In this document: one piece after another, positions 4,193-4,323 of the stretch
Layout: each line of letters starts with the position of its first letter
Position numbering within the stretch: position 1 is the first letter of the stretch
NCBI GenBank assembly: GCA_018713725.1
Contig: DVOJ01000012.1
Coordinates: 1,225 to 65,224 of the forward strand
Reading direction: 5' to 3'
DNA length: 64,000 nucleotides
Source: Candidatus Caccopulliclostridium gallistercoris
Lineage (GTDB): Bacteria; Bacillota; Clostridia; Christensenellales; UBA1242
Program-made: the position numbers and the translations under genes
Notes under the pieces: generated by a model
Database searches by the model: none
What the model was told of the DNA's origin: nothing
The model's input: the letters and a program-made list of their open reading frames with translations, nothing else

Positions 4193-4323
4193 TCAAGCTG
4201 TTTATAAACTTCGCGATGCTGTGTTTCTGTCAAGCGCGCCCAAACAGTCACGTACGTTTGTGTACGCTCCTGCTTAGGCGCACTTGCCGAGCCTTGCCTC
4301 GCTCGTTTAAATAAACAGCCTGA
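4193..4323 (+). repeat. MITE/REP-like element, copy A (131 bp)
   Basis: The termini TCAAGCTGTTTATAAAC ... GTTTAAATAAACAGCCTGA are inverted repeats. The right half (CAGTCA..CTCCTGCTTAGGCGCA..CCGAGCCTTGCCTCGCT) is homologous to copy C. The element sits between the ATPase stop (4190) and the terminator (4336). Confidence 0.7.

Follow-up and report, generated by a model that had tools for sequence, protein, structure and literature searches.

Hairpin targeting by insertion sequences of the IS1182 family is documented, and its mechanism is not understood. ISCbo5, an IS1182-family element of Clostridium botulinum group III, has cag...ctg ends, and its direct repeats are complete hairpins of 15-44 bp located at gene ends (PMC3098183, text and Table S3). 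IS1272/TnSha1 of staphylococci, which belong to the same family, target inverted-repeat or terminator hairpins without primary-sequence specificity, and when IS1272 inserts, the hairpin is deleted or replaced and no duplication of the target arises (PMC4923244, PMC5678879). IS1182-derived MITEs (miniature transposable elements with inverted repeats) of 160-169 bp, with ISMac2 as partner, have been described in Methanosarcina acetivorans (PMC3852290), and IS1182 goes unmentioned in a review of prokaryotic MITEs from 2024 (PMC10969869). In this study, we analysed a 64-kb stretch of Candidatus Caccopulliclostridium gallistercoris (contig DVOJ01000012.1, 64,000 nucleotides, hereafter the window), an uncultured gut Clostridia, and characterized a short non-coding element that is present there in three copies, A, B and C, and that belongs to a family found in other genomes. 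The element is very probably a miniature non-autonomous transposon of the ISCbo5-type IS1182 lineage.

The Methanosarcina MITEs resemble the present family in being small non-autonomous IS1182-family derivatives, but they come from an archaeon, their repeats are 25-26 bp long, their target duplications either span 4 bp or are absent, and no hairpin targeting has been reported for them (PMC3852290). The IS1272L variant has a tandemly duplicated terminal repeat, like the tail of our element (PMC4923244, PMC5678879), whereas mobile copies of our element, unlike IS1272, duplicate the hairpin. ERIC/IRU, Correia, BOX/RUP/SPRITE and the bcr repeats of the Bacillus cereus group are also small and non-coding, have hairpin potential and are often co-transcribed with their neighbours (PMC10969869). 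However, they share no sequence or covariance-model similarity with the element and have other parent transposase families, and their duplications are short (TA or TTTAT) or absent, whereas those of the present family are whole terminator hairpins. Correia and RUP elements make a TA duplication. The preliminary description of the window had drawn a parallel with BOX, RUP and Correia elements, which stands as an analogy of kind but not as a relationship, given the absence of Rfam homology and the duplication of hairpins of 17-28 nt.

Mobility and duplication of terminator hairpins

Copy C (41164-41335, plus strand) lies between two perfect 22-nt direct repeats (41142-41163 and 41336-41357), each comprising an entire terminator hairpin plus three T. 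We compared this site among 10 contigs of the same species that encode an identical upstream protein. A single terminator (...aaagCAAGCTTTAAAAAAGCTTGTTTttttttgtaaaat) was found in seven of these contigs and the window arrangement in three, and filled and empty sites differ by exactly 194 nt, which corresponds to the 172-nt element plus a 22-nt second copy of CAAGCTTTAAAAAAGCTTGTTT. Copy C is demonstrably mobile, with a clean filled/empty polymorphism inside one species. The window arrangement was likewise identified in L023 (loci labelled with L and a number are fetched contigs that contain the element or comparison insertion sequences). In this contig (ERZ1643251 NODE-4866), the copy at 11225-11357 is identical to copy C, tail and right hairpin included, and beyond the T-tract the sequence departs from the window, owing to a rearrangement or else to a join made at the repeat during assembly; the contig also has a 51-nt tandem direct repeat at 8440/8543 and a second element at 3455-3586.

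Whole-hairpin direct repeats were identified at five more copies, namely L009 (25 nt), L011 (23 nt), L008 (17 nt), L001 (17 nt with one mismatch) and L012 (19 nt with two mismatches), and for each of them the observed score was reached by none of 100 shuffles. All five copies are tailed and the direct repeat begins immediately after the tail, while L010 has a diverged hairpin pair at its flanks. In every one of the seven copies whose hairpin repeats are recognisable, the T-tract lies on the right-hand side. The preliminary description, which proposed a non-autonomous mobile element, is thus borne out by the filled/empty polymorphism, the target duplications and the copies in other genomes, although it had overlooked the perfect repeat of the upstream terminator hairpin around copy C; its right end of copy C has to be moved to 41335, as a 22-nt tail follows the inner right repeat.

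The features of the three window copies, all on the plus strand, are as follows.

4188-4190, plus strand: stop codon of the ATPase gene, 5' of copy A
4194-4322, plus strand: copy A, short form of 129 nt, CAAGCTG...CAGCCTG, without tail or flanking duplication; covariance-model score 118.5 bits
4287-4308, plus strand: conserved right box of copy A, a small hairpin CGAG/CTCG and then GTTT
4336-4360, plus strand: intrinsic terminator after copy A, an 8-bp stem and then six T
35107-35308, plus strand: copy B, long modular form of 202 nt, CAGGTAG...CCGCCTG, without tail or duplication; 35 bits, E 6e-6
35276-35297, plus strand: conserved right box of copy B, scored terminator-like
35333-35357, plus strand: intrinsic terminator after copy B
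41142-41163, plus strand: left-hand repeat of the copy C target-site duplication, CAAGCTTTAAAAAAGCTTGTTT, the terminator hairpin of the upstream gene plus three T
41164-41335, plus strand: copy C, 172 nt; 171.6 bits
41164-41179, plus strand: left repeat of copy C, followed by the CGCGA box, an extra hairpin and the core
41280-41301, plus strand: conserved right box of copy C, scored terminator-like
41298-41313, plus strand: inner right repeat of copy C
41314-41335, plus strand: tail of copy C (22 nt), a second inverted copy of the terminal repeat
41336-41357, plus strand: right copy of the 22-nt duplication, the T-tract continuing to 41363 to give a complete terminator

A covariance model built from 17 family members (R1) returned exactly these three copies in the window, in the one orientation in which they had been placed before. 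The 22-nt right box CCGAGCCTTGYCTCGCTYGTTT occurs three times in the window, each time on the plus strand (at 4287, 35276 and 41280), and was not matched in 100 shuffles with three mismatches permitted. The preliminary description was right about the terminal inverted repeats, the homology between copies A and C and the CGCGA box, as it was about the GC enrichment (GC content of 0.41-0.49 in the copies vs 0.31-0.36 in the surroundings) and the absence of coding capacity, no open reading frame (ORF) of at least 80 amino acids overlapping any window copy. Each window copy folds far more stably than shuffled sequence. Copy B retains the ends typical of the family and both the CGCGA box and the right box, while its central hairpin is different and an extra module is present. 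As described before, a stop codon lies just upstream of all three copies and a terminator-like hairpin downstream: the gap from the stop codon is about 2-3 nt for copy A, 1 nt for copy B and 24 nt for copy C, and the hairpins are located at 4336-4354, 35333-35352 and 41332-41358, respectively. The upstream plus-strand genes encode a P-type ATPase (copy A) and a 176-residue protein with weak, sub-threshold double zinc-ribbon matches (copy B), whereas the name Rho-like protein given earlier to the product upstream of copy C is not upheld, the Rho_N match being sub-threshold only (22.4 bits vs a cut-off of 24.9). Directly 3' of copy C lies a giant ORF of 6020 amino acids (41453-59515, plus strand) with precomputed Pfam Flg_new and Flg_new_2 repeats and many internal DNA repeats, the length of which differs among strains of the same species (5995-6092 amino acids).

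On the plus strand the element begins with the left repeat CAGGCTGTAGAAAAAC, 3' of which stand the CGCGA box, optionally a hairpin, and then the box TGCTGCGTTTACTGT; a 17-bp rod is capped by a small hairpin that is flanked by the invariant sequences ACAGTCA and CTCCTGC, and the invariant box CCGAGCCTTGCCTCGC is followed by the inner right repeat GTTTTTGTACAGCCTG. In many copies a tail, ATAATTTGTCTACACTCTG, forms a second inverted copy of the left repeat, and the true ends of these tailed copies are CAG...CTG. The terminal arms measure 16-18 bp, and the share of their cells that pair is 88.9% for the plus strand and 92.3% for the minus strand. Sizes are modular within a range of 129-370 nt: about 130 nt; about 155 nt, where the CGCGA box is followed by an additional covarying hairpin; 205-225 nt, the type of copy B, with a further module; and about 370 nt. 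The long forms (window 35170-35275, L019, L020, L005 and L006) share a module consisting of ACGTCAAAAGCTGCGCT, a hairpin and CGCTnGCTTTTTCCTTTTCCCnAAAAAT...ATTTTTGGGGnCCCCGA, which may represent another small element lying inside the first, and the 370-nt forms have two G/C-capped A/T hairpins of this kind.

About 18 of 22 distinct copies follow a co-oriented gene, at 0-45 nt from its stop codon, and only one of the 22, in L006, is clearly reversed, an orientation bias that the preliminary description had suggested to look for together with the empty sites. The element adjoins or overlaps the stop codon in L013, L020 and L022, which are without duplications. In L004, L025 and L026/L028, a frame starting MNEHNLNN... 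appears, as read by eye, to enter the left arm of the element, which may supply its last codons and its stop.

Probable kinship with ISCbo5-type insertion sequences

A copy of ISCbo5 was located on plasmid p3BKT015925 (NC_015418; L032:35706-37318, 1613 bp), where it lies in a gap of the gene table and is flanked by a 30-nt hairpin duplication. The left end of ISCbo5, CAGGCTGTTGATAAAC, is identical at 14 of 16 positions to the left repeat of the element in L003, L010, L011 and L012. At the right end a hairpin is followed by CTTTTTGAACAATCTG, which is identical at 13 of 16 positions to the inner right repeat GTTTTTGAACAGCCTG of the element; the latter is also preceded by a small hairpin, namely the right box that scored as terminator-like in the scan, and the right box of copy A matches in position the hairpin that ISCbo5-type insertion sequences have immediately inside their right repeat. 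Positions 17-35 of ISCbo5 (ATAATTTGTCAACAGACTT) resemble the tail of the element. The ORF of this ISCbo5 copy shares 94% identity with a protein named IS1182-like element ISCno1 family transposase, with which the Pfam domains PF05598, PF01609 and PF13751 are associated. Three further insertion sequences of the same group (P0116, L064 and L065) have CAG...CTG ends and a hairpin before the right repeat. P0116 matches the terminal repeat of the element at 13 of 16 positions and is flanked at L050, L052 and L054 by whole-hairpin duplications of 18-21 nt, one of these sites being 3' of a tRNA gene, while the insertion sequence in L064 ends in CAGGCTGTTGATAAAC...GGGGTTTTTGAACAATCTG. The published habit of ISCbo5-type elements, insertion into hairpins at gene ends with duplication of the whole hairpin, is thus re-verified here.

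Our family shares with ISCbo5 and ISCno1 (ISBma2-like elements of C. botulinum group III and C. novyi) the CAG...CTG ends, the left repeat (CAGGCTGTTGATAAAC vs CAGGCTGT(A/T)GAAAAAC in the element), the hairpin followed by TTTTTGAACAnnCTG at the right end, and insertion at gene-end hairpins which are duplicated (15-44 bp in the insertion sequences). It differs in size and coding capacity (130-370 nt and non-coding vs 1.6 kb with a DDE transposase of 454 amino acids), in its unrelated conserved folded core, in the tandem second right repeat of mobile copies and in its host lineage, uncultured gut Clostridia. We are confident, on these grounds, that the family is either a derivative or a parasite of insertion sequences of the ISCbo5/ISCno1 type (IS1182 family).

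A DDE transposase provided in trans (Pfam DUF772, DDE_Tnp_1 and DDE_Tnp_1_6) would, we infer, recognise the terminal repeats, CAGGCTGTAGAAAAAC on the left and its inverted copy on the right, or the outer tail copy where one is present. Integration would occur at palindromic DNA, in practice at the intrinsic-terminator hairpins of gene ends, and the two strands would be cut on opposite sides of the palindrome, so that repair would copy the whole hairpin (17-28 bp). The product would read gene, hairpin without its full T-tract, element, hairpin with T-tract. As the proximal hairpin keeps only part of the T-tract, transcription of the upstream gene would probably read through the element and terminate at the distal hairpin copy, placing the element in the 3' untranslated region (3' UTR). 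The preliminary description attributed the layout of stop codon, element and terminator to a preference for the gap between stop codon and terminator; our results instead point to the terminator hairpin itself as the target, and the layout would be a by-product of its duplication: because the hairpin itself is duplicated, the element comes to lie between a gene, or a hairpin lacking its T-tract, and a complete terminator.

Several observations weigh against this derivation. No flanking duplication was found at copies A and B. In L013, L022 and the second copy of L024 the outer arms are wholly unlike CAGGCTG yet complementary, and this pairing would not be predicted from simple decay of a transposase-binding repeat. 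Likeness to known insertion sequences is confined to about 16-20 nt per end and to the architecture, the core of about 100 nt and the exact right box having been found only in this family and never within a full-length insertion sequence. In addition, tblastn searches with five IS1182-family transposases against the window and about 0.5 Mb of element-carrying loci returned none, and insertion sequences with ends like those of the element were found in other Clostridia only. When all fetched loci were searched for full-length elements by means of hairpin repeats 1-3 kb apart, only miniature elements were seen. The window does contain an unrelated insertion sequence of the IS3 family (60095-61251, minus strand), with a 103-residue HTH_Tnp_1/HTH_28 ORF (60940-61251) followed by a 282-residue ORF with an rve integrase core (60095-60943); the IS3 family has short duplications and other ends.

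As to copies A and B, copy A is present in the contigs of the same species that were examined and copy B in all three same-species places shown, and no copy A was found 3' of ATPase orthologues at 73-90% identity, where gene order differs, so that an ancestral empty site cannot be reconstructed. These two copies are fixed. They may have been inserted at the base of a hairpin without duplication, by analogy with the IS1272 mode, or alternatively the left duplicate may have been lost. In a more distant relative (L063, about 3335-3440), the equivalent place after the stop codon of a 73%-identical ATPase orthologue is taken by a different insert, GC-rich and highly palindromic (gaaaaacgcccccgcggctctgaaatc...gccgcgggggcgttc).

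It might be asked whether a quite different kind of repeat could produce the same picture. The preliminary description called the copies REP-like, and extensive hairpin potential, strong orientation bias and an intergenic 3' location would suit a REP/REPIN-like or IS200/IS605-derived palindromic element mobilized by a Y1 (HUH) transposase through single-stranded DNA. However, IS200/IS605 and REP elements make no target duplication, whereas the terminal inverted repeats of our element, with their CAG...CTG ends, are long, as are its target duplications. Its termini match those of DDE-type IS1182 elements, and its 130-370 nt far exceed REP units; neither a linked Y1 transposase nor insertion at a fixed tetra- or pentanucleotide without duplication was seen. 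This origin is therefore highly improbable, and both termini and insertion signature place the element with the ISCbo5-type IS1182 family instead. Even less credible is the proposal that nothing here is mobile, the copies being convergent or duplicated terminator-like sequences or integron attC-like recombination sites. The position immediately after ORFs, the imperfect inverted repeats and the internal terminator-like hairpin recall such sequences, but the precise filled/empty polymorphism and a non-palindromic core of about 100 nt conserved across genomes do not. The attC core sites have the consensus RYYYAAC (R'') and GTTRRRY (R'), and the arm ends AAAAAC/GTTTTTG do not fit the GTTRRRY core; moreover, the neighbours are housekeeping genes and not cassette arrays, and no integron integrase was seen in the window. 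The terminal repeats and IS1182-type ends, together with the long duplications and the precision of the polymorphism, led us to reject REP/IS200 descent, attC sites and chance likeness. As for other structured elements, hammerhead-like and other ribozyme cores, retron RNA, TnpB/IscB guide RNAs and IS110 bridge RNA were compared by eye with the conserved boxes without a fit, and no partner gene is adjacent to the element.

The folded core and its strand asymmetry

The fold was analysed on a 17-sequence alignment (A2) with our own five-helix structure. On the plus strand 90.4% of cells are paired, compared with 31-46% when the partners are slid, and 27 of 51 pairs show changes on both sides; on the minus strand 95.9% of cells are paired and compensatory changes occur in 24 of 46 pairs. 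The inner rod covaries as well (11 of 17 pairs), as do the optional and apical hairpins, with invariant junction and loop sequences, and a long-range covarying pair links the T(G/A)CTGCG box with the variable Y of the right box. The mismatched cells of the plus strand are mostly A.C (47), which correspond to G.U on the minus strand, while plus-strand G.U cells number only 11. The minus strand is more stable by about 11 kcal/mol on average, as seen in 16 of 17 short copies and likewise in the long forms; for copy A the energies are -71.5 kcal/mol (z -9.9) on the minus strand vs -48.3 (z -4.5) on the plus strand, and the RNAalifold consensus energies are -53.7 and -39.8 kcal/mol, respectively. 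The main source of this asymmetry is three conserved plus-strand A.C positions, which are occasionally Watson-Crick instead, and because much of it rests on these three inherited positions, the copies are not independent evidence for it. Deamination of an exposed top strand would predict the opposite bias to that seen. At a site common to three lineages (L004, L025 and L026), the element is 90-94% identical and gap-free, compared with 63-88% identity in the upstream flank and 82-93% in the downstream flank. An AGGAG...ATG/GTG arrangement around the apical hairpin on the minus strand was considered as the start of a small ORF and rejected, the peptides not being conserved and the frames being broken.

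In addition to being a transposon, the element might contain a core that is also a functional structured RNA, or a structured single-stranded DNA, under selection, with candidate roles as an orientation-dependent 3'-end module acting on transcript stability or termination or as a minus-strand antisense RNA; the preliminary description had offered a 3'-UTR RNA module as its alternative reading. Orientation-dependent RNA effects have been reported for some structured intergenic repeats. We regard this additional function as rather unlikely. A multi-helix fold with extensive compensatory change, invariant junctions and a long-range covarying pair speaks for it, as do the better folding of the minus strand in nearly all short copies and in the long forms, the conservation of shared-site copies relative to their flanks, and the placement of most copies shortly after the stop codon of a co-oriented gene. 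On the other hand, covariation in the outer stem is expected of any two repeats bound by one transposase, templated correction in inverted DNA repeats could mimic compensatory change, and the strand asymmetry is largely accounted for by the three inherited positions. Copy C is dispensable, being absent from most of the strains compared, the copies stand behind unrelated genes, and the strand that folds better is not the one co-transcribed with the upstream gene, no promoter having been found for it. Rfam (release 15, gathering threshold, whole window) has no family for the element on either strand, and in permissive mode the best sub-threshold matches of copies B and C were noise (E at least 0.18). 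The sole Rfam pass in the window was a tRNA gene of 87 nt with a long variable arm (5750-5836, minus strand, 50 bits).

A more specific version of this functional reading, which we also regard as rather unlikely, is that the core of about 100 nt is no mere remnant of a transposon but a previously undescribed structured RNA or single-stranded DNA that acts on the minus strand and has been kept by selection after insertion. The three conserved G.U pairs would then complete a long rod and a conserved three-way junction, and the IS1182-type ends would serve the spread of the core to the 3' ends of genes. Such a core could, for instance, modulate termination or mRNA decay in an orientation-dependent way, or regulate as an antisense molecule. 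If true, this would explain both the conservation at the shared site above that of its flanks and the near-uniform orientation of the copies.

Distribution and significance of the family

The right box was found in 12 contigs of at least eight species-representative assemblies, nearly all labelled uncultured Clostridia bacterium, and in 16 true metagenome contigs, and the covariance model added two diverged copies (L023:3455-3586 and L024:11121-11254). Family members stand behind unrelated genes, and several copies may occur in one genome: three were identified in the metagenome-assembled genome E03__bin100 (L001, L008 and L011) and two in ERR911987_bin.81. The organism of the window is a spore-former, as judged from SipL and YpeB domains. 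A tandem or partial second copy was observed beside a full element in L022/L027 (about 4948-5252) and in L020 (about 1124-1420). The pair in L022 follows an ORF ending ...AFAHFKW, presumably ribosomal protein S7 from this motif, the stop codon of which lies in the outer stem of the element. The match in L014, a GC-rich soil metagenome contig, was excluded from the family as a chance match to 20 specified bases.

There was no sign of phage carriage in IMG/VR, where a pattern scan with the right box gave no match and one with the left end gave a single match, within coding sequence and due to chance. Likewise, copy C had no match among 72,556 plasmids in a blastn search.

The layout of stop codon, repeat and terminator in this family gains a mechanistic reason, since the terminator would be both targeted and rebuilt by duplication, which amounts to a low-damage insertion strategy. 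The IS1182 family would gain a bacterial MITE that duplicates hairpins, and its natural filled and empty sites, together with its small size, would suit it well to studies of how the structure of DNA, and not its sequence, is recognised by a DDE transposase. With its conservation and strand asymmetry, the fold is a candidate for a function acquired by domestication. For the biology of the host, the element is a source of 3'-UTR variation among strains of one uncultured gut Clostridia species.

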